Origin: Candidatus Kapaibacterium sp.
GTDB lineage: Bacteria > Bacteroidota > Ignavibacteria > Kapaibacteriales > UBA2268
Reading direction: 5' to 3'
Assembly: GCA_963664875.1 (NCBI GenBank)
Contig: OY761611.1
Coordinates: 3,008,001-3,072,000, forward strand
DNA length: 64,000 nt
This document shows positions 3,558-39,416 of the stretch, piece after piece. A model generated the notes under the pieces. The model saw only the letters and a program-made list of their open reading frames with translations, made no database searches and was not told the DNA's origin. A program made the translations under genes and the position numbers. Every line of letters begins with the position of its first letter. Position 1 is the first letter of the stretch.

Positions 3558-3765
3558 TAGCCCCTCAACCTGACAGAAACCGCTCCGACCGGCAATAATG
3601 CCTGCGATTTCGCCACAAATGCCATTGGCGGCATTAGTATATATCTATATAGAGACATATATATAATAATCGCCACTGCGGAAAACACGTAATTTTCAAA
3701 AACAGAAAAAATAGCAAAAAATACTTACGCGAAGAGCGGTACTAATAAGTCCTTATAAAATAAGG

Positions 3766-3792
3766 TAAAGGTATAATTTAATCAGCCGATAA
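3766..3792 (+). promoter_or_regulatory. Sigma-28 (FliA/SigD)-type promoter, distal
   Basis: TAAA(3766-3769)-N15-GCCGATAA(3785-3792), an exact match to the sigma-28 consensus. Confidence 0.7.
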
Positions 3793-3832
3793 ATATATAT
3801 AGTTATAGCATATCAATCGGCGGAGAAGAAAA

Positions 3833-3848
3833 TTGGCACTTGAATTGT
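3833..3848 (+). promoter_or_regulatory. Sigma-54-like -24/-12 site
   Basis: TTGGCAC-TTGAA-TTGT. GG is correctly spaced 12 nt from the -12 element, which is GT instead of GC. Confidence 0.45.
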
Positions 3849-3990
3849 CAATAGTGTAAATAGGTAAAAAAATACAGGAAAACTATGTATATATGGCTAT
3901 TATTATACATAGCAGTGCCGATTATAGGCTTGCTTGACAATATTCAATCAAATAAATATTGTTAAGCACTAAAGAATTTTACACAAATGC

Positions 3991-4017
3991 TAAAGTTTGT
4001 GAAGATTTATCCGATAA
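3991..4017 (+). promoter_or_regulatory. Sigma-28-type promoter, proximal
   Basis: TAAAGTTT-N11-TCCGATAA, one mismatch to the extended consensus TAAAGTTT-N11-GCCGATAA. Confidence 0.7.
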
Positions 4018-4091
4018 CAGTGGATAAGTGCATAGGTACATAAAAATAGAATATTATTATACGCCAAGATAATAAGTCCAAAAAACAAAAG

Positions 4092-4135
4092 AAACCCACA
4101 GGAAGTGGTTTAAATGTCTAACTAATTATGGAGGA
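4092..4135 (+). promoter_or_regulatory. CsrA-type binding sites in the 5' leader
   Basis: Hairpin CCAC-AGGAA-GTGG (4096-4108) with GGA in the loop, followed by ATGGAGGA (4128-4135) overlapping a Shine-Dalgarno site. Confidence 0.55.
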
Positions 4136-4139
4136 TTCT

Positions 4140-4181
4140 ATGCAAGAGTCAATTCTGCCTGCGAACAAATCACCCGGCTGA
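4140..4181 (+). CDS. Putative leader peptide (uORF) MQESILPANKSPG
   Basis: GGAGG lies 5 nt before ATG 4140. TGA at 4179-4181 is followed by TAG. The stop lies in the GGCTGAT/ATCAGCC stem. Confidence 0.45.
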   Translation: MQESILPANKSPG

Positions 4182-4292
4182 TAGCAAATCAGCCTCGGAA
4201 AGATGATTAGGCACGCTAAGCGAAGGCAATAAAAAAGCTAAGCGCACGAAAACGACAAAAAATTATATTTTTTAATAAAGGGATATACTGTC

Positions 4293-7200
4293 ATGAAAAA
4301 GAATTTCAAACTTTTCAAAATAGGAATTTTCCTTGCTTTAATACTCGGCTTTGCGTTAGGGCAGGACGCATACGGGGAAACATTTACGTCAGTTCAAACT
4401 GGACCTTGGAATGATCCAGCGACATGGGGAGGAGCTCCTGTAGGAACTGATGTGGATGGTATTCCAGATGCAGATGACATAGTTAATATTGATGCTAACC
4501 ATACAGTTACTTTGACAGCTGATGCGATATGTCAATCTCTGGTATTCGCGGATCCAAATGCTGGTGGTAGTAATAGCCTTACAGCAAATACTACTGTGAA
4601 CTTAGTGGTTTTAGGTAATATTGACTTAGGAACGAATGGTGGTGGTAATACAGCAAGTATTACAAATGGTACAGGTGCTGTTAATTTGGTAATTGGTGAT
4701 ACTACAAATGCTTCATCTAGTACAGTTAGTGTGATTGATATAGAAAGTACTCATAGCATTACAGTAAATAATGTAACATTATATAATGCTGCGGTTACTT
4801 ATGATGTTGATGTTGCTGCTTCAGCAATTACTATTTTAGGGAATCTTGATTTACAAGGTACAAGTACATTAACACCAGGTGGAACAGCTGCAGTTACTAT
4901 TACCTTTGATGGCACAGGTAGCTCGGCAGCAAGTATAACTGTATCAGATGATTCTTACTTAGATTTTGAATCATTTGCAACAGCTAATAGTGCGGCAATT
5001 ACAACAACTGATGATATTACTTTTTCTGGTGATATTGATATTGCTTCCGGATCGTTTAATCAAACGGCTGGGACAAGCTATTTAGTTGGTAGTGCTGCAG
5101 CAGACCCAGAGATTACTGGCGGTTCAATAAGTTTTTATAACTTGAATGTAAATACAACTGCTGAGGCTGTGACATGTGATGCAACTGCATTGGTTGTTAA
5201 AGGTGATTTAACTAAAGTTGGTGCAAATGCCATGACACTTGCAGATGCTATTACCTTTACTAATACAAGTGCTAAAGAAATTGTAGCAAGTGGCGCAGGT
5301 GCTTTAGCTTTTGAGAATATTAATATATCTTCCAATTCAAGAATAACTACTAATAGTAGCTTCCGAATTGGAGATGGTACTAGTGGATCTACGTTTACAA
5401 TTGGAAATGGTGGTTCATTTAATGCTGCAACCGGAACTATCACTTTAGATGGGACAGGTGGTAATGTTGTTTTAGTTAATAGTGGAGGTCAAGATACATG
5501 TTTGACTTTTGCTAACATAACGTTCGTAACTGCAACAACAACTACTACTGCGACAGATCTAGTAATTACAGGATCTTTTGATGATGGTGGTGCAACATTT
5601 ACAGCGACTGCAGGCAAAGTAGTTTTTGATAATGCTGTAAGTAAATCAATAACTTCAACAGGAACAACAACTTTTTGTGTCTTGGAAGTGGCTGATGGCT
5701 CAAAAGTCACTTGTGCTTCGCCTATCGTGATAGCTGATGCTGGTGCTGATCAAGCTTCAGGTATAACAGTAGGTACTGATGGATCTTTAGTCTTTAGTAC
5801 TCCAAGTGTTGTAACCCTTAGCGATACAGATTCTGCTACTGATATGCTTATAAATAATGATGGCACGTTGACATTTTTTGGTTTAACAATTGCAGATAAT
5901 GTCGCTAATGATATAGTTACAACAGATGATTTCAATGTAACAGATACTTGGACTTTTGCTGGTGATGGTACTTTTGCAGCTAGCGGAACTAGTAATATCT
6001 CATTTACTGGAACAGGTGCTCAAAATATTACGGGAGCTGATGCACCATCTCAATTGATTTTAAATGATATGACAATTGAAACAGGTGCTTTGGTTACTTT
6101 AGCTGCTACCAATTTTTTGGAACTTACAGGTGATTTAACAATCAATGGAACTGGTACATTTACTCATGCAACAAATGTTGCAGGTACTGTGGAGTTTAAT
6201 GGTACCAGTCAACAAAAAATTAAAGGTTCAAGTGCTTCAGCTGTCGCAATGTCACAGTTAGTAGTTGATAAACTCAATGCTCCAAATGGTACTATTGGAA
6301 CTGAAGATGAAGTATTGATGGAATTGGATGTAACGGTACCGGCTGCTACTGGTGCTGTAACTATTACAAATGGTCGTTTAAATTTAGGGAGCAAAACATT
6401 AACTACAGGTGTTGCTCCGACCACTCCTGCAGGTTATATTGATGGTAACCTAGGTACTTTTGCTTCAAGTACTGCAGCAATAACAATTGATAATACGTTA
6501 TTTAGTGCTGATAATTCGTCAACTTCTGGTACACTTTATAATTTAGAAGTTGGAACTGGTGCAGTTGTTACTATTACAGCTACAAGCAAGTTGACAGTTA
6601 ATAAAGATTTGACACTTGACGATAACTTGACATTTACAAATTCAACCTTGCATTTGTTTGGTGAAGTAACTCTTGTTACTGGAGATGAAGAATTGGTATA
6701 TACTTCAGGTACTGCAGCTACTTCTTTAGTTATCTTTGATGGTACTAGAACGGTTCCGGTTCTTCAGAATTCGTTATTTAATGATGGTGCTGATAACGAA
6801 GTATCTTCAATTGAAATAAGAGCAAATGAAATACTTGCTGGCGACGTATCTATGGAAAAAGATGGGAATGGCGCTGTTCTTACAATGAATTCTAGTATCA
6901 ATAATCTCAATTTAGCTGGTAATACTTTAACTTTGGTTGCAGATGGATCTGTAAATATCGTGTCTGGTCAAATGTTAGCAAATGCTACAAGTTCTGCAGT
7001 TGATTTTGGTACAATTACACAAATCCCTGCGAACATGTTTGTTGATGATGAAATAGAAGATATTACAATAGCTGCAGATATTACTTTATTAGGCAATTTA
7101 ACTATAAACGGATTGTTAACTACCGCTCCGAATAGTATCTATACTGGTGATAATATATTAACATTTGGACCGGACTATACTCAAAGTAATCCATTTACTA

Positions 7201-8894
7201 CAGCGAAACACGTTATTGGACGTTTAAGAAAAACAGTAACAAATGGTGCTACACTTTTTGAATTGGGTGATGGAACAGCGACTACATATAGAGCTGCTGA
7301 AATTACTTTTTCAAATACTAATACATCTCAAGTTGTAGAAGTGTCTAGTGAGTTAGTAAATGCAACTGTAGATAGACAAGGTGATCCTGTAAAAGCATTA
7401 AATGCGGTTTGGACGATAACTCCTATAGGAACAGTATCAAATACATTTGATAGTGTCAATGTTAAATTCTATTGGGGAACTGAACACGATAACGGTTTGA
7501 CTTTTGCCGTACCAGGTGATGCTACTGATGAGACTACAGTTACTACTTTCCCTGTTAGATGGGATGGTTCTCAGTGGGAAGATTATTCTCAAAGTGTTGT
7601 ATTGGGTACTCCTTATGCAGCTGGACCTCCTAAGTCTTTAGATATGACTGGTTGGAATACATACCCATTGACTGCCACTGATTTTGGTGGTGTATGGTCT
7701 GTATTTGTTGATGCTCATCCTTATGACGATGCTCTTGAAGCAAGTACTGACGGGAATCTAGTATTTTCAAGTTTCCCGGAATATATTGAAAATGGTATTC
7801 CTTTTAATGCGACAGTTCAATACCAAGATCAATATGGAAATCCAATTACTGTAGGAAGTACTGATGGTGCATTCACAGTTGAAGTTAAGAAATTAGCTGG
7901 AGATGGTAATATTACTTTGTCTGGAACAACTGTTTCAGCTGTTATTCCAATTGGATCTTCTTCAGTCGCCATTAGCGGTTTGGTAATGGACGATGCTACT
8001 ATAGCGACATTTACTGATAGAAATAATATTCAACTTAAAGTACAAGCAGCTTCGCCAGGTAATTATACTGATGTAAGAACAGGTACAAGTGAGGTATTTA
8101 ATATGCTTGCTACAGAACCTGCTGCTCAAGCTAATAGCCTTACATTTGCTAATCTAGGTTATACTTCCATGACTGTTGGTTTTACCGGCAATGGTAGCGC
8201 GAGTGACAAAGCACTCATTATTGCAAAACCTGGTAGAAAAATGGATTCTGACGAATTCCCGGTTGATGGTACTTCTTATATTGGTAACAATGTATTTGGT
8301 GCCGGTTCTGTAATTGGTGATAGTGCTGTTGTTGTATATAATGGTCCTGCTAATGGTGCTGGTAATTATAGCTTTAGCTTAAGTGGTTTAGCTCCTGGGG
8401 AAACTTATTATTTCAGAGCTTTTGCGTATGCCGGTGCTAATGGTTCAGAGAACTATTTTTATAACCCTGGACCTCAATCAGCACTTAGCAAAACTACAAC
8501 TTCAGAAACTGACGACGACGTAGCATTTGGCTCTAACGATACAAGAGCTACTGCTAAACCAATCGGTTCAAACTCTGCAGTAAAAGGTACTATTGCTGAT
8601 GCAACTGACGAAGACTGGTTCTCATTTATGGTAACAAGCGCAGCTTCTAACATTAGAGTAAAACTCACAGGCGTGCCTGCTAACTATAACTTAGAACTTT
8701 ACAATGCAGATAATAGAAGAGTTCGCCGTGCTACATTAAGTGGTATAGAAAGCGAATATGTTGTAATAAATAATCTTGACGCCGGAACTTATTCTATTAG
8801 AATCTATGGCGTTGATGGCGCTTATGATAATACTCTTACTTACACTGTAGAAGTGCAGACAAGAGATACAGAAATCTTTAGCGTCACTCAATAA
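4293..8894 (+). CDS. Giant secreted surface/adhesin-like protein: G8-like N-terminus, long beta-solenoid, Ig-like, FN3 and C-terminal PPC-like domain
   Basis: 1533 aa with a Sec signal peptide. Motifs: TSVQTGPWNDPATW, Thr/Gly/Asn-rich beta-strand repeats, VQYQDQYGN (Ig-like), LSGLAPGETYYFRAFAY (FN3), DEDWFSF...YNLELY...LDAGTYSIRIYG (PPC). Confidence 0.85.
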   Translation: MKKNFKLFKIGIFLALILGFALGQDAYGETFTSVQTGPWNDPATWGGAPVGTDVDGIPDADDIVNIDANHTVTLTADAICQSLVFADPNAGGSNSLTANTTVNLVVLGNIDLGTNGGGNTASITNGTGAVNLVIGDTTNASSSTVSVIDIESTHSITVNNVTLYNAAVTYDVDVAASAITILGNLDLQGTSTLTPGGTAAVTITFDGTGSSAASITVSDDSYLDFESFATANSAAITTTDDITFSGDIDIASGSFNQTAGTSYLVGSAAADPEITGGSISFYNLNVNTTAEAVTCDATALVVKGDLTKVGANAMTLADAITFTNTSAKEIVASGAGALAFENINISSNSRITTNSSFRIGDGTSGSTFTIGNGGSFNAATGTITLDGTGGNVVLVNSGGQDTCLTFANITFVTATTTTTATDLVITGSFDDGGATFTATAGKVVFDNAVSKSITSTGTTTFCVLEVADGSKVTCASPIVIADAGADQASGITVGTDGSLVFSTPSVVTLSDTDSATDMLINNDGTLTFFGLTIADNVANDIVTTDDFNVTDTWTFAGDGTFAASGTSNISFTGTGAQNITGADAPSQLILNDMTIETGALVTLAATNFLELTGDLTINGTGTFTHATNVAGTVEFNGTSQQKIKGSSASAVAMSQLVVDKLNAPNGTIGTEDEVLMELDVTVPAATGAVTITNGRLNLGSKTLTTGVAPTTPAGYIDGNLGTFASSTAAITIDNTLFSADNSSTSGTLYNLEVGTGAVVTITATSKLTVNKDLTLDDNLTFTNSTLHLFGEVTLVTGDEELVYTSGTAATSLVIFDGTRTVPVLQNSLFNDGADNEVSSIEIRANEILAGDVSMEKDGNGAVLTMNSSINNLNLAGNTLTLVADGSVNIVSGQMLANATSSAVDFGTITQIPANMFVDDEIEDITIAADITLLGNLTINGLLTTAPNSIYTGDNILTFGPDYTQSNPFTTAKHVIGRLRKTVTNGATLFELGDGTATTYRAAEITFSNTNTSQVVEVSSELVNATVDRQGDPVKALNAVWTITPIGTVSNTFDSVNVKFYWGTEHDNGLTFAVPGDATDETTVTTFPVRWDGSQWEDYSQSVVLGTPYAAGPPKSLDMTGWNTYPLTATDFGGVWSVFVDAHPYDDALEASTDGNLVFSSFPEYIENGIPFNATVQYQDQYGNPITVGSTDGAFTVEVKKLAGDGNITLSGTTVSAVIPIGSSSVAISGLVMDDATIATFTDRNNIQLKVQAASPGNYTDVRTGTSEVFNMLATEPAAQANSLTFANLGYTSMTVGFTGNGSASDKALIIAKPGRKMDSDEFPVDGTSYIGNNVFGAGSVIGDSAVVVYNGPANGAGNYSFSLSGLAPGETYYFRAFAYAGANGSENYFYNPGPQSALSKTTTSETDDDVAFGSNDTRATAKPIGSNSAVKGTIADATDEDWFSFMVTSAASNIRVKLTGVPANYNLELYNADNRRVRRATLSGIESEYVVINNLDAGTYSIRIYGVDGAYDNTLTYTVEVQTRDTEIFSVTQ

Positions 8895-8940
8895 GATAAA
8901 TTAAGTAAATAAATTTTAGTAATAATAAAGGATTTATGCT

Positions 8941-11900
8941 ATGACAAGCAAAATTAAAAATCCCGCGAGACATGGAAGTAAATTGTCATGGGGAAGTTTA
9001 GTATGGTTTGCTGCGGCGCTCTTCCTTTTCGCCATAGAAGGTTTCGCACAAGATTACGAACTTTCCATGAAGCCTCGCCGCTTGGGCAACCAGCTTGGGG
9101 TTGAGATTTGGATGAAATCTCTAAACTCGAATACCGCTGCCCTTGGCAACGCTTCTATCTATATCGAGTATAACAATGCAAAGTTAAAACCAGCAGATTT
9201 GGGTGCAACTAACCCATCTTCTACTTCAGACTCGATTAATGTAGATATAGATAATGATGGTACTCCATACGAATCATTGACATCTGCCTATGCGAGCGGT
9301 GACTACAAAGCACTATCAGCACAAGCAGTAACAGCTACCCAAGGTGGAGTAACAGTTAATGTATTTGGTTTGGATGTAAATTATAACATCAACGGTACGG
9401 GTGTAGGTGTAGTTCCATCTACAGACGGTCGCGGTTCATTTATCGGTATGTTACGCTTTGATATCAACTGGAACGGTCCTGATGGTAATCCAAGCACAGC
9501 TGATGATATTACATTGACAGATACAGATCTTGCAATGTTCGATTGGAACAGTGCAACATTTGCCGGCGACATTACATTGCAAGATGTAAATGGTAACAAT
9601 ATCGAACCAAATGTAACTTTGGTAACTCCTGATGATTTCACAATTCGCGGTATCGAAATCTTTACAGCAGATGGTGGAAATAATCAAGTAGTAAACAGAT
9701 ACCCAACTACAGAATATCCTGTGTTTGATACACAAAATAATTTAGGCTATCCAATTTATTTCGAACGTTCAGGTTTGACTGATGATGCTGCTGACTATGG
9801 TCATGCAGATGGTAAAATAGCCTATGTATTAGAATATTCATTGGATGGTGGTACAACTTGGACAGAAACAGCAAGATTTGCTGAAACAACACAAGGACAT
9901 GCTGCACTTACAGGAGCCGGAACAGTTGCACAATTTGCAGATGGTTTCGTTGACTATCCTGCAGCCGGTACAGACTACTATGTTACAGATGCAGATGGTA
10001 CTGTAATGGATGGTTCTGATCAGGACATCTTAAGAACAATCTGGAAAGCAGACGATAACTTCCCATACAGATCAGAAAATGCAAAAATCAGATTAACACA
10101 GTTGCAAAATACAAGCGGTGTTGCAATCGACGGACGTACTAAATTGACAGGCACAACTCAAATGAATGCAAGTGATGACACATTTGTATTAGGCAGATTG
10201 TTCTTTGCTCAATTAGATGGTTCTTCTACTTATTTCAAAACACGCTGGCCATATAGCAATGCTTCACAGCTTACTGTAATGGCTTGGGTAAACTTGAACG
10301 GTGTATCTGCGACTCCTGGAGCAGAACCTGGTATTATCGCATGCTCTGAAGGTTCAAAATCTGACGAAGAAGGTGCATGGATACTTTACTTGGAAGATGG
10401 CAACAGACCAGCTTTCCGTGCAAGAGAAAAAGAAGGTCGTGGCACTAACGGGTACTTAGGTTCAGTAGTAGCTCCTACAGTTGATGCTCTATCAACTACA
10501 AGCTCTGCAGTTCCTATCACTGATGCACATGGCGATAACTGGATGCACATTGCTGCAACAGTAGCTAATGGCGTAACTACACTTTATGTAAATGGTGAAA
10601 TCGTAGCTCAGGACATCAATACTACAGTTGTAGATCCACGTTTGGCAAACTTTAACCAGACAATCTGGGTAGGTGTTAACCCTAACGATGGCATCACTGC
10701 AACTGACTATTTGAATGCCGGTATCAAAGAAGTGAGTGTATGGCGTATAGCTTTATCTCAAGATGTTTTGAGATCTTACATTCCTGGCGTGTATGATCCA
10801 AGTGGAGAAGTACTCGGTAACGAATTGGAAGAAGCAAACGTTGATTACAGAACAGGCTTGGAACTTTACTATCCATTGCAAGGTTCACGTCTTGATTTGG
10901 CTGATGACAACATTCAGTTCTCAGACAACAACTTAAACTATTACACTGATTCAAATATCGATGCTGTTGCAACTAACAGCTCTATAAACTACAGACCTGA
11001 CCGCTCACACATCCGCTTGACAGCACCTTTGGGTGGCGAAGGCGTAAGTAATTTGATTGATAAAACATTCGAAGTACGTTGGGCAGCTTATGGTCTTGGT
11101 TCAACAACAACATTGTCAGAAGATTTGCAGATTATGATTAGCCGCGATGGTGGCACAACATGGTTTGATGCAATCGACAATGCTGCACCTGCAATGCCTT
11201 TGGATAATGTAGAGGTTGAAGCAGGTAAAGCAACATGGGAACCATATAACAATATTACAATTTCCGGTTCTGATGATGACTTACAAGGTGTAATCGATAT
11301 CGAAGCTAACTGGTCTAAATCAGTTAAACTTAGAATATCCGGTACAGATGACAGAGCTCAGAGCTCAATCTATGATGAATCAGGTAACTTTTTGGTAGCT
11401 CCTTGGTTTGCAATGCAAAACACAGGCGATTCAAAAATCGAAGTACCTTCCAACACAGAATTGAACTTGAATGCCGGTGCGCAAATGATTGAAGCATGGG
11501 TCCGTCCTTATCGCTTCCCAACTGCTGACGAAGCTTATTTCCCAATTATGGCGAAAAAAGCAGCAGATGGTTCTGAAACACACTATGCATTTAGATTATT
11601 ACAATCAGGACAATTACAATTAGTACTTGAATCTTCTACCGGCGACGCTTTGAGAACAGCTACTTCTGATGCAGCTTTACCATTGGTAAAACCATCAGTA
11701 GAAACTAAAGACTCATTGTGGTACCACGTAGCAGTATATTTCAATTTGGCAAGTGGTAGCCAGTCAAGTGTATATTTCTTTATTGATGGTACAATCCAAG
11801 ATGCAGCTGCAATTACAGAACAACTTGGTACAAACATCACTATTGATAATTTGAATACACTTCCTGCATATATTGCTTCTGAACCAACAAGTGCTACAGA

Positions 11901-14900
11901 AACTAAAAACTTTATCGGTCAGATAAAAGAAGTTAGATTCTGGAATGGTAATCCTGCAGGTTTGACTAGTTTAGCGACAATCACACAATTTGTACAAGGT
12001 GCAGCAACTGTAAGAGCAGATGAATTGATATCATTTGGTGGTATTGACTACTCAGAAAACTTAGCTGCTGCTTTCATATTGAACGGTGGAAGTTTTGTTA
12101 ATAATGGTATGGTTCGTACTGTTGCAGCTTACCCTGCTTCTTCAGGCCTTTATGCAAATATTACAGATGCAGATGGCGAAGGTGACGGTAATGTTACATA
12201 CAACTTTACTAAACCAACACTAAAACTTATTGAACCTATTTATAAACAAGCAATTCCAAACAGCAAAACCGATCTTAGAGTTCGTTGGACTGGCTTTGAC
12301 TATAACAGAAATGATATAGCTGAAAAGTTTTACCCTGGCGATGCTGTTATGAACGAATCTGACTTAGGTTTTGGTACAGTAGGTGGCGGTGGTGCTGAGA
12401 TACTTTATTACGAGCCAACTGCCTCAAAGAAAGACAATCCGACATTTACAAATGCAATGACCTTGACTGAAATTAATCCTCAGTTTGAGTTTCAGGGTTC
12501 GTTCCCTCACAAATCTCAGTATGCAGCATCATTAAATGTATCAATCACTGATCCTGATGCAAATGATGATGGTACTTCAGATGACCAAGGACCTATGGGC
12601 GCAGCTATGACAAACGGACGTTTGAAATTATCTGGTCGCTCTAATGTCAATGGCTATGTAGTAAAATGGGATAACGATGCTGATGGTATGATGCACTCTC
12701 TATTTGCAGAGTCTCAATACTTCAATATTACTCCTCCTTCTAACTTTACTGTAAGAGTAATTCCTGAAGGGTATTATACTCCTAATACAGTTGCAGCCGG
12801 AGATGGTGCAATTGATGTAACAGGTAGTACTAATAATGATTTAGGTACTACTTATGATCAAGGTGGTTTGAAAATTTCACTTTATAGTGATAATGCAGGC
12901 ACTCCGGGTACATTAGTGGCTACAAATGTATCGACAGAAGGTTACTTGAATGCAACTTCGTTCTCTTTAGCGAATAGAAATCAAGGTACTAATGATTTTG
13001 CAAACGTACCTTACGTATTTACTGATATCGAAGATGGTGACTATTGGGTAGTCGTTGAACATATCAATCACTTACCTGTAATGTCAAGGTACCCTGCACA
13101 TTTCAAATTCTCAGGCGACGATGGAGATACTTGGACTCTTGAATCAGGTTGGGATTTTACAAGTTGGACTGGTGGTAATACTACTGCCGATGTAATGACT
13201 CCAGCAGAAGCGGCAACAGATCCAACTACTTTTGGCTCTAAATACTCTGCTTACGGCAATAATGAGACGACTGAAAGTAATGAAAAATATTCTAATACAG
13301 GTTTACACTATAAACGTGGTAGAATATTGGATGCTAATATTGATGATAAGATTCCTTTGATTGTTGCCGGTGATGTCGTGAAGGACTACCAAATCAATGG
13401 TCTTGACAGAACTGCAATAAGAACTCAAACGATGAATGCAGCTACTACAGCACAATACGATGTAACCGGTGACGGTCAGAATAATGCTGAAGATCGTACT
13501 TTAGTTGATATCAATAACGGTAAAGTGTCATCTTTGACAGATGTTTCTACAATTAGTCTTACAGCTCCAAAAATTAACTTAGGAGATGTAATTGATAATG
13601 ACATGGTTGCATATTTGGATAAAGCTGCAAAAGAATACAATCCTGACAAGATATCAAAACAGATTTCTAAAACTGATTTGATTTTATCTGGGTTAGCATA
13701 TACTGTGTTTGCAGAAACATCAATAAACAACGATATGGTAGAAGTTTCTATGTTCATTGAAAACAATGGTGGTCAATGGGCAATGGGTAATGCTTCGTTT
13801 GTTCTTGATTATAATCAGGTTAATCTACAGTTTGTAGAACTTGTAAATAATGAAGAAGTTATTTTTGCAAACAGACAAGACTTGGGTTATTCTTCTAACT
13901 ATGCGGCTCCTCAGCCAAATGTTAAAAACCCTATGGCAGGTGTAAAATCAATCGAAATCGATTATGATGCTTATACTCGCAAAGCAGGTCAAATTGTTCC
14001 TAATTCTAAAACATATCTTGGTACTTTGAAATTTAAAGTTATCAAAGCTACTGATGTTTATGCTTTTGATTGGCATCCTGCAACTGCTGTCTTAGCTACA
14101 AACGGTTTAAACATGAATAAATACGGTGACTTCCGTGTGATTAAACCAGTAATCGTACAAAGAGATGCGGCTATCTTAACTCCTAACGGTGGTGAAGATT
14201 GGGATGCAGGTGCTCTTTACACTATCACTTGGACAAAACCTAACACTAACAGCCAGGTTAACGTAGAATACACTACTGATAACGGTAACACTTGGAATAG
14301 AATTTCAGCTGCTGCTCTTGACGTAGTTTCAGGTTCTTATAACTGGAAAACTCCTGCTGTTAACTCTGACGAATGCTTAGTTAGATTGGTAGATGCTAAA
14401 ACTTCTATTGAAATTGACAGAAGTGATGCTCCGTTCTCTATTATCTCTGCTCCTGCAGAAATCGTTCGCCCAACTTCTACAGATCCTATCTACAGAGGTG
14501 GTGCTAATGACTTCATTCGCTGGTCAGTAAACGAACCGAGCAAAGTACGTTTCGAATTCTCTTCTAATGGTGTAGATAGCTGGCAGTCTGTTTCTGCAAC
14601 TGTTAACTCTACTCTTGGTCAAGTAGAATGGATCGTTCCTTCAGTTAACTCTAAACAAGCTGTTGTTAGAATGATTGAAACTGAAACTAGCGAAGTATTA
14701 GCTGTCTCTAAACCATTTAAAGTATTGGCTGGTGCTGTTACTTTGGCTAACCCTACAGGCGTTAAAGAAAACAAACCAACTGATGTTAAATGGTCTGCTG
14801 ACAACGTAAGTAAGTTCGACTTACAACTTTCTATCGATGGTGGTAAAACTTGGGGCGTAGTTGCTACTAATGTTGCTGCTTTGAAAAAAGTTTACACTTG

Positions 14901-15303
14901 GACTCCTAACTTGTCAACTGATAACAAACCAACAGCTGTATTACGTGCAGTTTACAACAATGATAATGAACTTGAATATGACAGAACTGACTTGTTTGCT
15001 ATCGAAGCTAATACATCTGTAGCCGGTTTCGAAGCTCAAGGTTACTTGTTCAATCAACCTATGCCAAATCCGTTTAGAGAAGAAGCAAAACTTACATTTA
15101 CTCTTCCTGCTACAGAATCAGTTACAATGACTGTTTACAATGCAGTAGGTAATAAAGTTGCTACTCTTATCAATGGTGATTTGATCTCTGCTGGTGACCA
15201 TGAAGTAACATTGTCCGGTCATGACTTACCTCAAGGTGTATATGTTGTACGCTTGACAGCTGGTTCATTCTCAATGCTTAGAGAAGTTGTATTAGTAAAA
15301 TAG
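8941..15303 (+). CDS. Giant T9SS substrate: cohesin-like, 2x LamG, dockerin-like, cohesin-like, Ig-like repeats, type A CTD
   Basis: 2120 aa. Signal peptide ends GFA-Q. LamG motifs: LTVMAWVN...WMHIAAT...LYVNG and IEAWVRP...WYHVAV. Paired Ca-loop motifs: GDVVKDYQINGLD / YDVTGDGQNNAED. TPNGGE Ig-like units. C-terminal PNPF...VYNAVGNKVA...LPQGVYVVRL. Own RBS aagga. Confidence 0.9.
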   Translation: MTSKIKNPARHGSKLSWGSLVWFAAALFLFAIEGFAQDYELSMKPRRLGNQLGVEIWMKSLNSNTAALGNASIYIEYNNAKLKPADLGATNPSSTSDSINVDIDNDGTPYESLTSAYASGDYKALSAQAVTATQGGVTVNVFGLDVNYNINGTGVGVVPSTDGRGSFIGMLRFDINWNGPDGNPSTADDITLTDTDLAMFDWNSATFAGDITLQDVNGNNIEPNVTLVTPDDFTIRGIEIFTADGGNNQVVNRYPTTEYPVFDTQNNLGYPIYFERSGLTDDAADYGHADGKIAYVLEYSLDGGTTWTETARFAETTQGHAALTGAGTVAQFADGFVDYPAAGTDYYVTDADGTVMDGSDQDILRTIWKADDNFPYRSENAKIRLTQLQNTSGVAIDGRTKLTGTTQMNASDDTFVLGRLFFAQLDGSSTYFKTRWPYSNASQLTVMAWVNLNGVSATPGAEPGIIACSEGSKSDEEGAWILYLEDGNRPAFRAREKEGRGTNGYLGSVVAPTVDALSTTSSAVPITDAHGDNWMHIAATVANGVTTLYVNGEIVAQDINTTVVDPRLANFNQTIWVGVNPNDGITATDYLNAGIKEVSVWRIALSQDVLRSYIPGVYDPSGEVLGNELEEANVDYRTGLELYYPLQGSRLDLADDNIQFSDNNLNYYTDSNIDAVATNSSINYRPDRSHIRLTAPLGGEGVSNLIDKTFEVRWAAYGLGSTTTLSEDLQIMISRDGGTTWFDAIDNAAPAMPLDNVEVEAGKATWEPYNNITISGSDDDLQGVIDIEANWSKSVKLRISGTDDRAQSSIYDESGNFLVAPWFAMQNTGDSKIEVPSNTELNLNAGAQMIEAWVRPYRFPTADEAYFPIMAKKAADGSETHYAFRLLQSGQLQLVLESSTGDALRTATSDAALPLVKPSVETKDSLWYHVAVYFNLASGSQSSVYFFIDGTIQDAAAITEQLGTNITIDNLNTLPAYIASEPTSATETKNFIGQIKEVRFWNGNPAGLTSLATITQFVQGAATVRADELISFGGIDYSENLAAAFILNGGSFVNNGMVRTVAAYPASSGLYANITDADGEGDGNVTYNFTKPTLKLIEPIYKQAIPNSKTDLRVRWTGFDYNRNDIAEKFYPGDAVMNESDLGFGTVGGGGAEILYYEPTASKKDNPTFTNAMTLTEINPQFEFQGSFPHKSQYAASLNVSITDPDANDDGTSDDQGPMGAAMTNGRLKLSGRSNVNGYVVKWDNDADGMMHSLFAESQYFNITPPSNFTVRVIPEGYYTPNTVAAGDGAIDVTGSTNNDLGTTYDQGGLKISLYSDNAGTPGTLVATNVSTEGYLNATSFSLANRNQGTNDFANVPYVFTDIEDGDYWVVVEHINHLPVMSRYPAHFKFSGDDGDTWTLESGWDFTSWTGGNTTADVMTPAEAATDPTTFGSKYSAYGNNETTESNEKYSNTGLHYKRGRILDANIDDKIPLIVAGDVVKDYQINGLDRTAIRTQTMNAATTAQYDVTGDGQNNAEDRTLVDINNGKVSSLTDVSTISLTAPKINLGDVIDNDMVAYLDKAAKEYNPDKISKQISKTDLILSGLAYTVFAETSINNDMVEVSMFIENNGGQWAMGNASFVLDYNQVNLQFVELVNNEEVIFANRQDLGYSSNYAAPQPNVKNPMAGVKSIEIDYDAYTRKAGQIVPNSKTYLGTLKFKVIKATDVYAFDWHPATAVLATNGLNMNKYGDFRVIKPVIVQRDAAILTPNGGEDWDAGALYTITWTKPNTNSQVNVEYTTDNGNTWNRISAAALDVVSGSYNWKTPAVNSDECLVRLVDAKTSIEIDRSDAPFSIISAPAEIVRPTSTDPIYRGGANDFIRWSVNEPSKVRFEFSSNGVDSWQSVSATVNSTLGQVEWIVPSVNSKQAVVRMIETETSEVLAVSKPFKVLAGAVTLANPTGVKENKPTDVKWSADNVSKFDLQLSIDGGKTWGVVATNVAALKKVYTWTPNLSTDNKPTAVLRAVYNNDNELEYDRTDLFAIEANTSVAGFEAQGYLFNQPMPNPFREEAKLTFTLPATESVTMTVYNAVGNKVATLINGDLISAGDHEVTLSGHDLPQGVYVVRLTAGSFSMLREVVLVK

Positions 15304-15330
15304 TATGACATGACATATATCTTTATTAAA

Positions 15331-15364
15331 AAAAGCTGCCTCCGCAAGGGGGCGGCTTTTTTTT
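15331..15364 (+). terminator. Strong intrinsic terminator of the giant-protein operon
   Basis: aaaagctgcctcc-gcaa-gggggcggctttt followed by more Ts. Confidence 0.9.
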
Positions 15365-29243: not shown

Positions 29244-29316
29244 GCGAGAATAGCTCAGTTGGTAGAGCACAACCTTGCCAAGGTTGGGGTCGCGAGTTCG
29301 AGTCTCGTTTCTCGCT
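29244..29316 (+). tRNA. tRNA-Gly (GCC)
   Basis: Cloverleaf GCGAGAA...TTCTCGC-T, anticodon loop TT-GCC-AA, T-loop TTCGAGT. CCA not encoded. Confidence 0.97.
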
Positions 29317-29408: not shown

Positions 29409-29481
29409 GCGAGAATAGCTCAGTTGGTAGAGCACAACCTTGCCAAGGTTGGGGTCGCGAGTTCGAGTCTCGTTTCTCGCT
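29409..29481 (+). tRNA. tRNA-Gly (GCC), identical second copy
   Basis: Identical 73-nt sequence to 29244-29316. Confidence 0.97.
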
Positions 29482-35096: not shown

Positions 35097-35393
35097 CTAT
35101 TTTTTTATTTGAGCAAACAAAATATCGGCAGATTTTCGGTTTTTGCCGTTATTGTCTTCGGAAAAAATCATATTGCCGCCGGTGAGAGCGTGTTTCAAAG
35201 CAGCAAACTCTGTTTTAGATGCTTCTTTATTCATTTTTACGATTTTGTCGTGAATTTCTTTTCTATGTACTGGAATAGTTTTAGGTGCTTCGATGCCAAG
35301 TCTGACAACGCCACGGTCAAAACTTAGGACTGTAATTTTAACCGAATTGCCTATCGTAACTACTTCCCCGATCTTCCTTGATAGTACTAACAT
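35097..35393 (-). CDS. csrA: Carbon storage regulator CsrA (long, FliW-partner type)
   Basis: MLVLSRKIGE...VRLGIEAPKTIPVHRKEI, plus a C-terminal extension with N-x-x-A (MNKEA). Confidence 0.95.
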   Translation of the reverse strand: MLVLSRKIGEVVTIGNSVKITVLSFDRGVVRLGIEAPKTIPVHRKEIHDKIVKMNKEASKTEFAALKHALTGGNMIFSEDNNGKNRKSADILFAQIKK

Positions 35394-35436
35394 AATTTAT
35401 CCTCTCTCTCTGTAATTTTTTCAAGTGTTTTTATAA

Positions 35437-35862
35437 CTACTTATCTTCTTTATTTGGAAACAAGTAATTAGTGGAATACTTATCGGAACGCAAAATCCTC
35501 TGTTCTCCGGTTTGTTTTTCGACATCTAAAATGATGGGTGCCTTCATGTTTGCACTCATTTGCCCTTTGGAGCTGTCAAGAGTAACAACCACAAAGAGAA
35601 CAACTTTATCAGTGTCAATTTCTCTTCCGGGACTATAAGTGAGGTCGATATGCCATGGACTGAGTAAAGGGAAGCCTATTTCAGGCTCATCCAAACTGAT
35701 AAGCCACTTGAAAGGGACAGTCTCTTCATCGCTGATAAGGACATATTGTTTCAAATTTTCAAAGCCCAACATGCCGTCTTTGAAAGTAAAAATATGTTTT
35801 TCTTCTACGTTGATTTCACCGAAATGAAGAGTCTTAATCGATTTTGTTGCAGTGGTATCCAT
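35437..35862 (-). CDS. fliW: Flagellar assembly factor FliW
   Basis: Motifs TLHFGEI, FKDGMLGFE, PFKWLISLDEPEIGF, SANMKAPIIL. Adjacent to csrA. Start is ATG 35862 or GTG 35868. Confidence 0.93.
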   Translation of the reverse strand: MDTTATKSIKTLHFGEINVEEKHIFTFKDGMLGFENLKQYVLISDEETVPFKWLISLDEPEIGFPLLSPWHIDLTYSPGREIDTDKVVLFVVVTLDSSKGQMSANMKAPIILDVEKQTGEQRILRSDKYSTNYLFPNKEDK

Positions 35863-35865
35863 AGT

Positions 35866-35897
35866 CACATCCTTGTGTTTGTCAATCCTAAGTATTG
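35866..35897 (-). promoter_or_regulatory. CsrA binding sites over the fliW ribosome-binding site
   Basis: Minus strand CAC-AAGGAT-GTG (ACAAGGAUGU, matching the CsrA core consensus ACARGGAUGU), plus upstream CAAT-ACTTAGG-ATTG. Confidence 0.65.
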
Positions 35898-35944
35898 AAA
35901 TTATATGTACTCTAACAAAAGGTCAAAGCACAAAAATATTGTTA

Positions 35945-36691
35945 TTAATAACCGCTAACCGCAGGAGCAGAAGAATTTAATTCAGATATAGTAATCTCTA
36001 CTCTTCTGTTTATTGCCTTGCCTTCAGGTTTTGCATTAGAGGCTATCGGCCTTTGAGCTCCAAATCCTCTGTAACTAAGATTTACTTCCGGCACTCCTCT
36101 TTGGGTAAGAGCGTAAAGGACATTCAAAGCTCTTACGCCTGAAAGATGCCAGTTAGACGGGAATTTCGGTGTATTTATCGGATCGGAATCCGTATGCCCA
36201 TCCACAGTAATCTGGTACTTTGGACTATTCAATATTCGTGCCAAAGTGTCTAATGCTATCATGCCGTCGGCAAGCACGTCAGCTTTTGCAGATTCGAATA
36301 ACAATTTCTCGGATAAGTTGATAATAATCTCTGTGCCTGTTTGTGTTATTTCTATTGTACCCTCGTCGATATAGCTTTTCAACGATTCTTTTGTTTGCTG
36401 TGCTATATCTTCCAAACTCTTTCTACCGGCTGCCGGAGGCAGTATTGGTTCCGGAAGTCCTTCGCGGCTGCCTTCGAGCACTCCACTGGAGCCTTCCAAA
36501 ACAGATCCGGGCTTGAAAATATCCGCAAAAGCAGTGCTTATCTGCTTATACTTTTCTTCGTCAACGCTCGAGGTCGAATACAATATCACAAATAACCCAA
36601 GCAGCAGAGTAATCAAATCTGCATAAGTTATCAAATAACGATCGCCGGAATTTTCTGTTTTCCGGTGCTTTATTTTTTTTATTTTAGGCAC
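35945..36691 (-). CDS. motB: Flagellar motor stator protein MotB
   Basis: ITYADLITLLLGLFVILYS (conserved Asp). OmpA-like domain: GHTD, SNWHLSGVRA, NRRVEI. Confidence 0.92.
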   Translation of the reverse strand: MPKIKKIKHRKTENSGDRYLITYADLITLLLGLFVILYSTSSVDEEKYKQISTAFADIFKPGSVLEGSSGVLEGSREGLPEPILPPAAGRKSLEDIAQQTKESLKSYIDEGTIEITQTGTEIIINLSEKLLFESAKADVLADGMIALDTLARILNSPKYQITVDGHTDSDPINTPKFPSNWHLSGVRALNVLYALTQRGVPEVNLSYRGFGAQRPIASNAKPEGKAINRRVEITISELNSSAPAVSGY

Positions 36692-36723
36692 GCGTCATCC
36701 TTATACTTTTGCCTATGAGACAT

Positions 36724-36750
36724 ATATCGGCAGTTTTTTCAAAAAGATTA
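36724..36750 (-). promoter_or_regulatory. Sigma-28-type promoter of the motB operon
   Basis: Minus strand TAAT-N15-GCCGATAT, about 30 nt before the motB start. Confidence 0.65.
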
Positions 36751-36947: not shown

Positions 36948-39416
36948 ATGAGTAAGATTGGATTACTAATTATTGCACTTATGCTTTTGTCTCTGCAGTC
37001 CAAAGCACAAGATTTGCTTGAGAACAGTCTTAAAGAACAGCTCACAAGACAAATGAAGTTAGGTAATTACCAGACCGGTACAAAGTATATCATTGCTATA
37101 CCGCCTAACGAGACTGCAGCTTACGGTTGGTCGGATTCGGCTATTGAAATTTATATAGCCAGTGCTTTTGATGTTTCGCTTGAGCTCGATATCATGGGTA
37201 CAAAAAAGACTATAATGCTCAAAGGGGGTGATGTTTTTACCATAAATGACAGTGAGGATCTTTCATATACAGCTGCAGAATGTAGGGAGCCTAATACTGC
37301 TACTACAAAAACAATCACAATAGAAGCATCTAAGCCGGTTTCAGTCTATGTTTTGAATTCCAAGAATACCACAACAGATGGCTATATGGCGATCCCGGTT
37401 GAGCATTGGGGGAACGAATATCTGCACTGCTCATACTATGACAATTACGAATCTACCCAAAGCACTTTTTCTGGTGGCTTTTTGATACTTGGATCAGAAG
37501 ACAATACTAAAGTTCAAGTGAATCTCCGTGGCATAGGTGATAAAAATATTGCTACTTTACGAAAAGATGATACGAAGTCTATCGGGAATACATTTTCTGT
37601 AAAGATAAATGAAGGAGAAGTTTATCAAATCGAATCTGACGGACTTACCCGTGGTCAATTTGACTTGTCAGGCACTTTAATTAAATCAGACAAACCTATC
37701 GGAGTTGTGTCTTATCATCAAAGAACAGTTGTGCCAATTCTTGCAAGTTCAAGCCGCGATCACTTGTCATCTATGATGCAACCGCTAACAGCTCTAAGCA
37801 AGAAATATGCAGCCTTAGCTCTTAGCAGAAGCGGCTCGACTAAAGGTGATTTGTTTAGGATTATGGCAGTCGAAGAAAACACTTCTTATTCTGTCAAATG
37901 GTACGATTTGAATACCAAACAGCAATTGGGCAATTTGGATGGTGTTTTGCAAAATGCAGGAGACTTTGCAGAAATATCTGATGTGCTAAATGCCGATCCT
38001 ACAGCCAAGTCAATAACAGGTAGCTCTGTATTCGAAGCTGACAAACCTATAATGCTTATGCAATATTCTTACTCCTCCGCATGGGATGGTGCGGATTACG
38101 ATCCTTTTATGTGGAATGTAACAGGGGAGGAGCAATACCTTACTCAAACAATATTGCAGGCACCTCCTAATAAGTCTTTTGGGGAGAACCATCTTAACAT
38201 AATAGCAAAAGATATTTCCGGTGACCCGTCGCTACCAGGATTAAAAAGTTTAGAGTTTGACGGAACAAAAATCGTGGATAAAATGCCGTCTTTCTTATCA
38301 AACAAAATACCCGGAACAGATTTGTACTGGGCTCGATTCAAAATTGCACCGGGTGTTCATGAGATAAGCAGTAGCGGAGATGCAAAATTTGGAGCCTATA
38401 TATATGGATTTAAGTCAGTTGATAGCTACGGTTGGCCTGCGGCTATGGCGAGTGCAAACTTGGACCAAACAGATACAGTTCCTCCCGGAGTTGCAATAGG
38501 AGACTACCAAGGTAACGGGAAATGGACGATAAATGTAACAGAACAGGTAAATGGAATGTCAGATGCAGGAGCAAAAGCACAAGTGGACAGTAAAGTATGG
38601 ACTGAACCTGCTATGCTGATAAAAGATATTTCAGGTTATACTTCATATAACTTTAAGGAGCCATACACAGATACTGAATGGAAATATTCTGCTCATGACA
38701 ATTATTCTTTTAATCTCGAAGTAGAAAATAGGTACGAAGATGCAATTGCTTTCTTTGCAGTATATGATTATGTAGGTAATATCAGAATAGATTCAATCAG
38801 ATATCATGCAGATATGCTAACCTTACTTAGTGCCGCTGAAATGGACTTTGGGACAATCAAAGAAAATACAGAAAAGATAAATACTCTTGTTATTAAAAAC
38901 AGTGGTGGGACTGAGGCAGTGATAAATAAGCTATACTTACAGGACAATCTTGAGTTTACTATTCTTTCCGGAGACACTCCTTTACCATTCACTTTGCAGC
39001 CTCAGGAAGAACATGAGTTAAGAATCAAATATTATCCTACAAAAGTAAGTGACTTAGATGTAGATACATTGTTTGTTGAAACAAATGAACTGACATTCAC
39101 TTGGGGACTAAAAGGAACGGCAGATGATGGCACAGGCATAAATGATGATGAATATAACGAAAATCTGACAATAACACCAAATCCGATTGGTGCAGAGGAC
39201 TCAGAAATAGCATATATCTTACCGGAAGCAGGCAGCGTAGATATACGCCTTTATGATATGCAGGGTAAATTTATACAATCTATTTACTCAGGATATGCTA
39301 ATGCCGGAAAAAATACTGTTTCTTTCTCAAACTCAGGACTCAATTCGGGCAGCTATCTGCTTGTGTTGAAACAGGGAGATTACCTTGTGAAAATGACAGT
39401 AGTTGTCAATAAATAA
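36948..39416 (+). CDS. T9SS substrate with an IgGFc-binding N-terminal domain and an Ig-like (choice-of-anchor D-like) domain
   Basis: Signal peptide. Motifs TTDGYMAIPVEHWGNEY, DLSGTLIKSDKPIGV, AYIYGF...SYGWPA, MDFGTI. CTD: ITPNP...LYDMQG...LNSGSYLL. Confidence 0.85.
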   Translation: MSKIGLLIIALMLLSLQSKAQDLLENSLKEQLTRQMKLGNYQTGTKYIIAIPPNETAAYGWSDSAIEIYIASAFDVSLELDIMGTKKTIMLKGGDVFTINDSEDLSYTAAECREPNTATTKTITIEASKPVSVYVLNSKNTTTDGYMAIPVEHWGNEYLHCSYYDNYESTQSTFSGGFLILGSEDNTKVQVNLRGIGDKNIATLRKDDTKSIGNTFSVKINEGEVYQIESDGLTRGQFDLSGTLIKSDKPIGVVSYHQRTVVPILASSSRDHLSSMMQPLTALSKKYAALALSRSGSTKGDLFRIMAVEENTSYSVKWYDLNTKQQLGNLDGVLQNAGDFAEISDVLNADPTAKSITGSSVFEADKPIMLMQYSYSSAWDGADYDPFMWNVTGEEQYLTQTILQAPPNKSFGENHLNIIAKDISGDPSLPGLKSLEFDGTKIVDKMPSFLSNKIPGTDLYWARFKIAPGVHEISSSGDAKFGAYIYGFKSVDSYGWPAAMASANLDQTDTVPPGVAIGDYQGNGKWTINVTEQVNGMSDAGAKAQVDSKVWTEPAMLIKDISGYTSYNFKEPYTDTEWKYSAHDNYSFNLEVENRYEDAIAFFAVYDYVGNIRIDSIRYHADMLTLLSAAEMDFGTIKENTEKINTLVIKNSGGTEAVINKLYLQDNLEFTILSGDTPLPFTLQPQEEHELRIKYYPTKVSDLDVDTLFVETNELTFTWGLKGTADDGTGINDDEYNENLTITPNPIGAEDSEIAYILPEAGSVDIRLYDMQGKFIQSIYSGYANAGKNTVSFSNSGLNSGSYLLVLKQGDYLVKMTVVVNK

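Follow-up and report, generated by a model that had tools for sequence, protein, structure and literature searches.

In Bacillus subtilis, CsrA occludes the Shine-Dalgarno sequence of the flagellin gene hag until FliW, freed by flagellin export, captures CsrA (PMC6529632). The flaA leader of Campylobacter jejuni is described as carrying two CsrA-binding ANGGA stem-loops 21 nucleotides (nt) apart, with 18 nt cited as optimal for one dimer (PMC4894983). In Escherichia coli, CsrA is reported to repress a small upstream open reading frame (ORF), and thereby the gene behind it, in evgL-evgA and idlP-iraD (PMC11210196). RAPP-like arrest peptides, which bear an R-[AG]-P-[PG] or RAGP core, cause stalling and are encoded upstream of protein-localisation genes (PMC12992588), and in Vibrio cholerae, frhA, which encodes a giant adhesin, has been reported to belong to class 4 of the flagellar genes and to depend on FlrA, FlrBC and FliA (PMC6890996, citing Syed et al. 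2009). Here we analyse the control region of an operon of two giant secreted proteins in a stretch of 64,000 nt (the window) from Candidatus Kapaibacterium sp. (assembly GCA_963664875.1, contig OY761611.1). The promoter and RNA leader of this operon are built like those of flagellin genes, which suggests that the giant proteins are made only while the flagellum is being finished.

The genome analysed (G000) is one single contig of 3.83 megabases with 36% G+C, in which the window is G000:C1:3008001-3072000. Comparisons were made with its congeners G001-G004, with leader-bearing genomes of other genera (G018, G067, G012, G023 and G098), and with sets of 130 genomes of the family and 254 genomes of the order. 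The features of the operon and its control region, in window coordinates, are as follows.

3665..3676, + strand: the AATAATCGCCAC block, where upstream conservation starts; invariant in 5/5 genomes of the genus
3766..3792, + strand: distal sigma-28-like box, TAAAGGTA-N11-GCCGATAA (TAAA-N15-GCCGATAA)
3834..3848, + strand: sigma-54-like site, TGGCAC-N5-TTGT, read directly
3991..4017, + strand: proximal sigma-28 promoter, TAAAGTTT-N11-TCCGATAA, with a predicted transcription start near 4025
4025..4292, + strand: predicted 5' leader, ~270 nt
4096..4108, + strand: hairpin CCAC-AGGAA-GTGG with GGA in the loop, candidate CsrA site 1, read directly
4128..4135, + strand: ATGGAGGA, strong Shine-Dalgarno of the leader ORF, candidate CsrA site 2
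4140..4181, + strand: leader ORF of 13 codons, MQESILPANKSPG, with ATG at 4140 and stop TGA at 4179-4181
4176..4194, + strand: predicted hairpin GGCTGAT-AGCAA-ATCAGCC enclosing the leader-ORF stop codon
4277..4283, + strand: AAAGGGA, weak Shine-Dalgarno of gene 1 and possible third GGA site
4293..8894, + strand: gene 1, 1533 amino acids, with a Sec signal peptide, a long predicted beta-helix and C-terminal fn3 and PPC domains
8941..15303, + strand: gene 2, 2120 amino acids, with two LamG-type domains, Ig-like repeats and a type A sorting tail of the type IX secretion system (T9SS)
15334..15364, + strand: intrinsic terminator with a 10-pair stem, GCAA loop and run of 8 T, read by eye and not listed by the pattern scan

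A preliminary description of this DNA had named five motifs upstream of the operon, and all five were read directly where it had placed them. With 0.03 occurrences of the sigma-28 pattern expected, the window contains two, a number that 0/100 shuffles reached; the motifs upstream of the giant operon are not due to chance. Genome-wide, TAAA-N15-KCCGATAA has 7 sites on both strands, 2 of which lie in this upstream region. Scoring used the sigma-28 consensus from E. coli and B. subtilis work, a TAAA(GTTT) -35 element and a GCCGATAA -10 element with a CGA core separated by 11 nt, of which the proximal box matches 15/16 positions with a spacer of 11. A weighted consensus scan of both strands (maximum 23.5) gave 23.0 for the proximal box and 22.0 for the distal box, with 539 positions at or above 19 of 23.5, 72 of them intergenic. 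The three highest scores belong to an orphan site at 72392, to a flagellin promoter and to the proximal box; the latter two tie for second-best, and the orphan is the single site above them.

So as not to lean on this consensus, we also derived a matrix from 28 flagellin upstream regions of 17 other genomes of the order. It was built from the 16 regions whose best box scored at least 19 with an 11-nt spacer, the other 12 being dropped for weaker boxes or other spacing. In a scan of G000 with this matrix (7,655,564 positions), its own two sigma-28-type flagellins ranked 1st and 2nd, the orphan site 3rd, the proximal box 9th (fourth among intergenic sites) and the distal box 122nd. The genome encodes FliA (TIGR02479, 205.6 bits), rpoN and five Flagellin_N genes, all of which the preliminary description had proposed to confirm. 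Two of these flagellin genes have GCTAAAGT-N-GCCGA[TA]A boxes (of the GCTAAAGT...GCCGATAA type) with an AGGAU-loop hairpin and a GGAGG Shine-Dalgarno behind them, and a third has TGGCAT-N5-TTGT upstream.

The arrangement recurs in related genomes. A pattern of CCGATAA, 95-125 nt and TTATGGAGGATTC was found in 8/130 family genomes with one match each, against 0 for the reversed control. Because this pattern had required CCGATAA, the -10 element was dropped from a second one; the Shine-Dalgarno and mini-ORF pattern alone, run over the 254 order genomes, matched 10 genomes once each (reversed control 0), all in this family and spread over 6 genera. Box, GGA-loop hairpin and GGAGGA Shine-Dalgarno stand in the same order in all ten, and a sigma-28 box scoring 20.5-23.5 is located 117-153 nt before the leader-ORF Shine-Dalgarno in 10/10. 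The boxes of G023 (a perfect TAAAGTTT-N11-GCCGATAA) and G098 (TAAAGTTT-N11-GACGATAT) were found although no sigma-28 criterion had been used in selecting those genomes, and the -10 variants GACGATAA and GTCGATAA are also present at relatives' flagellin promoters. Among congeners, nucleotide identity is 88-98% in the proximal promoter and 83-92% in the leader, which is single-copy in G000, against 76-77% for a housekeeping stretch. The distal box is consensus-grade in G000 alone: the four congeners have TAAAGTAA-N11-GTCGATAT at the same position and spacing, and no box of at least 18.5 was present at that position in G018, G067, G012 or G023. It was not found in the five other genera and is confined to one genus. 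Conservation upstream of the giant-gene orthologues, which the preliminary description had proposed to look for, is therefore seen for the proximal box, hairpin and Shine-Dalgarno, and for the distal box only within the genus. Sigma-28 control of the giant operon is well supported in silico, and we infer that its transcription depends on FliA.

The GGA-loop hairpin folds in 10/10 leaders; its core, CAC-AGGA[AU]-GTG, is kept in 9/10 and in G018 is rebuilt as CCC-AAGGGAA-GGG, again with GGA in the loop. The sequence ATTA[TG]GGAGGATTC is identical across the 10 leaders bar one base in G023. The hairpin GGA and the Shine-Dalgarno GGAs (GGAGGA, 4130-4135) lie 29-32 nt apart, so that one CsrA dimer could reach both the looped GGA and the one over a Shine-Dalgarno, as in hag and flaA; a sigma-28/sigma-D promoter and a csrA gene next to fliW are likewise shared with those systems. 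Unlike hag and flaA, however, the Shine-Dalgarno that would be occluded serves the 13-codon leader ORF rather than the structural gene, and the cargo is two non-flagellar secreted proteins. The leader is also ~270 nt long against 45 nt in flaA, with the loop AGGAA instead of ANGGA. Because the Shine-Dalgarno GGA belongs to the leader ORF, a hag-type mechanism is not directly applicable to the giant gene, and the earlier claim of a flagellin-type leader stands for the box, looped GGA and Shine-Dalgarno GGA but not for the gene that they were said to govern. A genome-wide screen for GGA-loop hairpins (stem of at least 4 pairs) before GGAGG-ATG returned 9 matches, this leader included; it defines no regulon, because flagellin stems have 3 pairs and drop out.

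The leader ORF has the signature of a coding sequence. ATGGAGGA lies 4 nt before its ATG, while the giant gene starts at ATG 4293 behind its own weaker AAAGGGA site. Since GGAGG-N3-9-ATG occurs at only 308 sites in the genome, both strands included, the predicted ribosome-binding site of the leader ORF is unusually strong. The ORF follows the pattern M-x8-[KR]-S-P-G in 10 genomes of 6 genera, and the stop comes directly after it in 8/10. The peptide reads MQESILPANKSPG or MLESILPANKSPG in this genus and MRRLTQNSIRSPG (G018), MERNILPTNRSPG (G067) or MKELKLPDIRSPG (G023) elsewhere, running on in G012 (MANFKLPDIRSPG plus 11 residues) and G098 (MNDLRMPEIRSPG plus 8 residues). In the Ser, Pro and Gly codons only the third position varies (TCA/TCT/TCC/TCG, CCC/CCG/CCA, GGC/GGA/GGG), the first two being invariant; the Arg codon varies as well (CGC, CGG or AGA). 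Because wobble positions vary and residues are fixed, a period-3 pattern, the leader ORF is probably translated, and the same pattern argues that its [KR]-S-P-G end is under selection. In congeners the stop-codon hairpin varies in its loop, and its stem is altered yet kept (CTGA/TCAG plus CCC/GGG in G002 and G003). From the end of the leader ORF to the giant ATG there are 109-130 nt in 9/10 genomes (~110 here) and 364 nt in G012, and AGGA or AGGGA lies 8-12 nt before the giant-gene ATG in 10/10. In the G012 spacer (L035/L079), a tandem array of ~14 units of 18 nt, A/T-rich and reading AATTTAATATAGAATTGA, lengthens ~115 nt to 364 nt, and no stop follows S-P-G.

Like the RAPP-like peptides (ApcA RAPG, ApdA/ApdP RAPP, SecM RAGP), the leader ORF is short, lies upstream of its gene and ends in a basic-small-Pro-Gly core. 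It differs from them in the core itself ([KR]-S-P-G, with Lys in this genus), in its 13 residues, in that arrest is only putative, and in not preceding Sec/YidC genes. With this core, no signal or membrane segment and a downstream gene other than Sec/YidC, it falls outside the definition of a RAPP-like arrest peptide and was rejected as one. A Rho-loading site after the leader ORF was also considered and found no support, the spacer being A-rich with C no higher than G.

Conservation does not stop at the end of the leader. The signal-peptide DNA of gene 1 (84 nt, window 4293-4376) is 98-100% identical across five species, against the housekeeping baseline of 76-77%, and after the cleavage site (4377-8894) protein identity falls abruptly to ~50%. 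This invariance suggests either an RNA-level constraint reaching into the ORF or a cassette-like replacement of the mature part. Rfam held no family for the leader at gathering scores, and at E up to 1 returned only a sub-threshold microRNA match. Metatranscriptome contigs from 3 studies cover 4041-4280, 4070-4347, 4071-4374 and 4173-4377; they bridge the leader into gene 1, and the last continues into a divergent gene body. No RNA-library contig from these studies lies upstream of 4041, a limit that assembled contigs cannot turn into a 5' end.

The presumed trans-acting partners are encoded in the same window, where csrA, fliW and motB with its sigma-28-type box were all found as the preliminary description had listed them.

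35097..36750, − strand: motB-fliW-csrA operon with its own sigma-28-like box
35097-35393, − strand: csrA (TIGR00202, 78.6 bits)
35437-35868, − strand: fliW
35945-36691, − strand: motB
36750-36724, − strand: TAATCTTT-N11-GCCGATAT box before motB

In the other genera, 5/5 genomes with the leader likewise have fliW and csrA side by side; FliW is absent from E. coli. With the two GGA sites and these partners in view, we infer that CsrA control is exerted through the leader ORF. A 256-nt A/T-rich spacer separates the motB-fliW-csrA operon from a divergently transcribed gene (36948-39416, + strand), whose product has a T9SS tail and an IgGFc_binding-type domain (168 bits).

Genes 1 and 2 are 46 nt apart, and gene 2 adjoins gene 1 in G001-G004, G018 and G008. 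Gene 1 had no whole-protein family and no NCBIfam match; its C-terminus matches fn3 (28.4 bits) and PPC (29.3 bits). For residues 1-461, AlphaFold2 with 9 orthologues gave an all-beta model with a predicted local distance difference test score of 84 and a predicted template modelling score of 0.83. Foldseek found nothing for this model in the PDB at E up to 0.001, and an alignment-based wide structure search placed the Vag8 autotransporter passenger at the top (Z 19.2, root-mean-square deviation 4.2 Å over 361 residues), with further right-handed beta-helix matches to a serine-rich-repeat adhesin (Z 16.6), tailspikes, pertactin and HMW1. The N-terminal part of gene 1 is thus predicted to form a right-handed beta-helix. 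A shared fold gives no function, and an adhesin and a polysaccharide-active enzyme are both possible. Sequence searches of solved structures returned nothing for either protein, and a protein atlas search gave only a lead of 0.76. Protein identity of gene 1 orthologues is 49-51% in the four congeners and 36% in G018; for gene 2 it is 80-82% and 49%, respectively.

Gene 2 carries Laminin_G_3 (82.4 bits) and a T9SS sorting domain (TIGR04183, 27.8 bits against a cut-off of 23), and the translocon SprA is encoded in G000 (786 bits), the combination expected of T9SS cargo. For gene 1, a T9SS tail was not recognised: Por_Secre_tail gave 12.6 bits (E 0.17) over the PPC domain, and a divergent tail is possible. 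Of the earlier label "T9SS/Sec surface proteins", the T9SS tail of gene 2 and the Sec signal of gene 1 are borne out, and a T9SS tail on gene 1 is not. The suggestion of a flagellar sheath or filament decoration found no hint in the domain content of either protein. Matches to FlgD_ig were sub-threshold and overlapped the sorting tail, and a flagellar role based on them was rejected; no flagellar structural role is indicated for either protein by these searches. Both products are most likely cell-surface proteins made by motile cells.

Paralogues of both genes occur elsewhere. A 1797-amino-acid paralogue of gene 1 (40% identity) lies at G000:C1:1238095-1245126 (L032; L031 in G004), with its Shine-Dalgarno within a hairpin, GAGAA-AGGA-TTCTC, directly before the ATG and a CCGATAT element ~100 nt upstream, which in G004 reads TCAAGTTA-N11-TCCGATAT; it may share part of the same control. 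In G018 (contig 4, 14608-21537, L075), the leader is immediately preceded by a 2343-amino-acid gene 2 paralogue (39-43% identity), giving the order gene 2 paralogue, leader, gene 1, gene 2; in congeners this paralogue is located elsewhere (~14 kilobases upstream in G003).

Upstream of the proximal promoter, the sigma-54-like site has a perfect -24 half and a -12 half of TTGT rather than TTGC. It is kept in the 5/5 genomes of the genus and in G098 and G012 (7/10 leader-bearing genomes), lying 274 nt (G098) and 568 nt (G012) before the Shine-Dalgarno in the latter two, and no site of this form was found at the leader in G018, G067 or G023. TGGCA[CT]-N5-TTG[CTA] has 62 matches in G000, 20 of them in the 11% of the genome called intergenic (10 TTGT, 8 TTGA and 2 TTGC). 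One match stands 30 nt ahead of an ORF immediately followed by a Flg_bb_rod gene in a flagellar rod-gene cluster, and 3/28 flagellin upstream regions of relatives contain the form with TTGT or TTGA. Because the intergenic matches are mostly TTGT or TTGA, and given the rod-cluster match and the 3/28 flagellin upstream regions, TTGT looks like the clade's normal -12 element. As in the tandem sigma-54 and sigma-28 control of flagellin genes in Campylobacterota and Vibrio, both promoter types occur at flagellin genes of the clade, and motifs of both types precede the operon in 7/10 genomes; unlike there, the -12 element is TTGT/TTGA instead of TTGC and the site stands ~440 nt before the gene. No activator or enhancer site was identified, though no search was aimed at an activator site. 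The AATAATCGCCAC block is possibly an activator site. DNA upstream of ~3660 is not alignable among congeners, and the flanking gene differs.

Other sigma-28-like sites of the genome can be noted here. The best match of all, the orphan site (TAAAGTTT-N11-GCCGATAA; G000:C1:72392-72620, L090, outside the window), has no ORF behind it; ~200 nt downstream come a stem-loop and T-run and then a convergent gene, and the site may drive a sigma-28-dependent small RNA. Four identical copies of a sigma-28-like CTAAAGTG-N11-GCCGAAAA are found at G000:C1:1419928, 1425315, 2514058 and 2519442, in pairs ~5.4 kilobases apart; they probably lie within repeated operons, perhaps of rRNA, and a promoter role is unlikely. 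Three small ORFs behind other sigma-28-like boxes had no Pfam match, one being FlgM-like by eye. The window also contains two tRNA genes (29244-29316 and 29409-29481, + strand, 165 nt apart), which are probably duplicates because their Rfam scores are identical (69.4 bits).

We hypothesize that the two-gene operon (4293-15303) belongs to the late flagellar regulon as an accessory member and has a CsrA-gated leader ORF, a reading to which we assign a probability of roughly 0.6. Transcription would start mainly near 4025 from the proximal FliA (sigma-28) promoter, late in flagellar assembly, and in this genus the sigma-54-type site and the second, weaker sigma-28-type box upstream could provide extra input. 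One CsrA dimer may bridge the hairpin GGA and the GGAGGA Shine-Dalgarno across their 29-32 nt. While flagellin accumulates in the cytoplasm, FliW would be occupied and CsrA free to block the leader ORF, perhaps together with the AGGA Shine-Dalgarno before gene 1. After export of the flagellin, FliW would capture CsrA and the leader ORF would be translated; ribosome pausing at S-P-G might then reshape the stop-codon hairpin and allow expression of the operon, yielding a Sec-exported, adhesin-like beta-helix protein and a T9SS-exported LamG protein. In its boldest form the hypothesis holds that the FliW-CsrA checkpoint has a second conserved output in Kapabacteria, the [KR]-S-P-G leader ORF reading CsrA occupancy and ribosome pausing switching on the 11-kilobase operon, such that completion of the flagellum licenses adhesin deployment. 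We offer this extended form tentatively and consider it doubtful as a whole.

Several observations weigh against a CsrA-gated flagellar leader. The hairpin loop is not an exact match to the published ANGGA or CANGGANG forms, and, folded as a whole, the leader has no exceptional stability (minimum free energy z -1.74). A Lys stands in this genus where arrest motifs have Arg, and in 2/10 genomes the ORF continues beyond S-P-G. The stop codons of idlP and evgL overlap the main start, which couples translation (PMC11210196); here the leader ORF ends 109-130 nt before the main start, so coupling of that type cannot apply and another link is needed. FliA scores above cut-off in 98/130 family genomes and the leader is found in only 10, which makes their co-occurrence uninformative. 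A metagenome scan for TAAAG-N15-CCGATAA-N95-125-ATGGAGGATT gave 6 loci, all unrelated, and no further examples; a scan of a genome collection gave 23 loci, 16 of which were without the TAAA -35 and leader ORF, approximately the number that chance yields for 20 fixed bases. The RNA-library contigs show neither ends nor strand and may reflect carried-over DNA, for which reason we count their fit to a start near 4025 and to co-transcription of leader and gene 1 as a weak hint.

Three other explanations share much of this evidence. The leader ORF may be an arrest or attenuation peptide that senses a metabolite, tRNA charging or translation-factor status independently of CsrA, the sigma-28 timing being kept and the GGA motifs amounting to a strong ribosome-binding site and a stabilising 5' hairpin. 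The hairpin around the stop codon agrees with this, GGAGG could be a mere anti-Shine-Dalgarno complement, and the conserved [KR]-S-P-G end resembles the RAPG, RAGP and RSPP arrest cores, although RAPG in ApcA is reported to have tolerated no substitution (PMC12992588). A peptide of 13 residues is, however, too short to exit the ribosome tunnel and so unlike known secretion monitors. The hairpin loop always shows GGA, even where the stem is rebuilt (G018), at a kept distance from the Shine-Dalgarno, and the same two-site layout recurs in the G000 flagellin leaders. We regard such a CsrA-independent sensor as unlikely. The same spacing of two GGA sites, 29-32 nt apart in a hairpin and Shine-Dalgarno context, would also suit an abundant leader RNA, timed by sigma-28, whose high-affinity GGA sites titrate CsrA, with a real sigma-28 promoter and giant genes controlled by transcription only. 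The flaA leader has been reported as an mRNA-derived CsrA antagonist in Campylobacter (PMC4894983), and the orphan sigma-28 box without an ORF hints at sigma-28-driven small RNAs in this genome. A decoy would have no need of a conserved peptide, yet the leader ORF is conserved at the amino-acid level; nor did the pattern scan predict a terminator between 4181 and 4293, and there are RNA contigs that span the leader and the start of gene 1. Titration by the leader thus seems quite unlikely to be its main role.

The remaining explanation concerns recombination rather than regulation: the leader with the signal-peptide region on one side and gene 2 on the other might be anchors for swapping a hypervariable gene 1 cassette, as in surface-antigen variation, the sigma-28-like box being incidental. 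The identity profile (signal-peptide DNA 98-100%, leader 83-92%, mature gene 1 ~50% in protein, gene 2 80-82%) fits this, as does the non-syntenic upstream gene. Across genera, however, the leader sequence has diverged and box, hairpin, Shine-Dalgarno and peptide nevertheless persist at fixed spacing, which argues for selection on function and not recent exchange, and the box is among the top sigma-28 sites of the genome. As a substitute for regulation, cassette exchange is very unlikely, but it could be true in addition to the late flagellar control favoured here.

Among described systems, frhA is close in its cargo, a very large secreted adhesin-type protein tied to flagellar regulators, and in its light the preliminary statement that no such example had been described was too strong. 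FrhA is reported to be exported by a type I system, with control via diguanylate cyclase and in a different phylum, and the passage of PMC6890996 that deals with frhA mentions neither a direct sigma-28 box nor a CsrA leader or leader ORF. Sigma-28 regulons that include non-flagellar genes are already known. What looks new is a flagellin-type sigma-28 and CsrA leader conserved before a T9SS-linked surface-protein operon, a leader peptide that stands between CsrA sites and cargo, and a tandem arrangement of sigma-54-like and sigma-28 sites outside flagellar genes. A full-text literature search, judged by titles and abstracts, returned nothing relevant on Kapabacteria flagella or on type IX secretion with FliA.

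The FliW-CsrA switch is viewed chiefly as a flagellin homeostat, and a conserved non-flagellar target, controlled by way of a leader peptide, would show that this checkpoint also times other surface functions. If true, the operon would give the partner switch its first conserved target other than flagellin beyond the known models, and its leader would be a new kind of CsrA-gated leader peptide. The leader ORF, whose length and [KR]-S-P-G end are fixed across six genera, is a small candidate for a new regulatory nascent peptide that lends itself to testing. The leader and signal peptide of gene 1 are nearly invariant and its beta-helix body evolves fast, a contrast that marks it as a surface protein under diversifying pressure. 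In a lineage equipped with both machines, the proposed control would tie the assembly of the flagellum to surface proteins exported by the T9SS.

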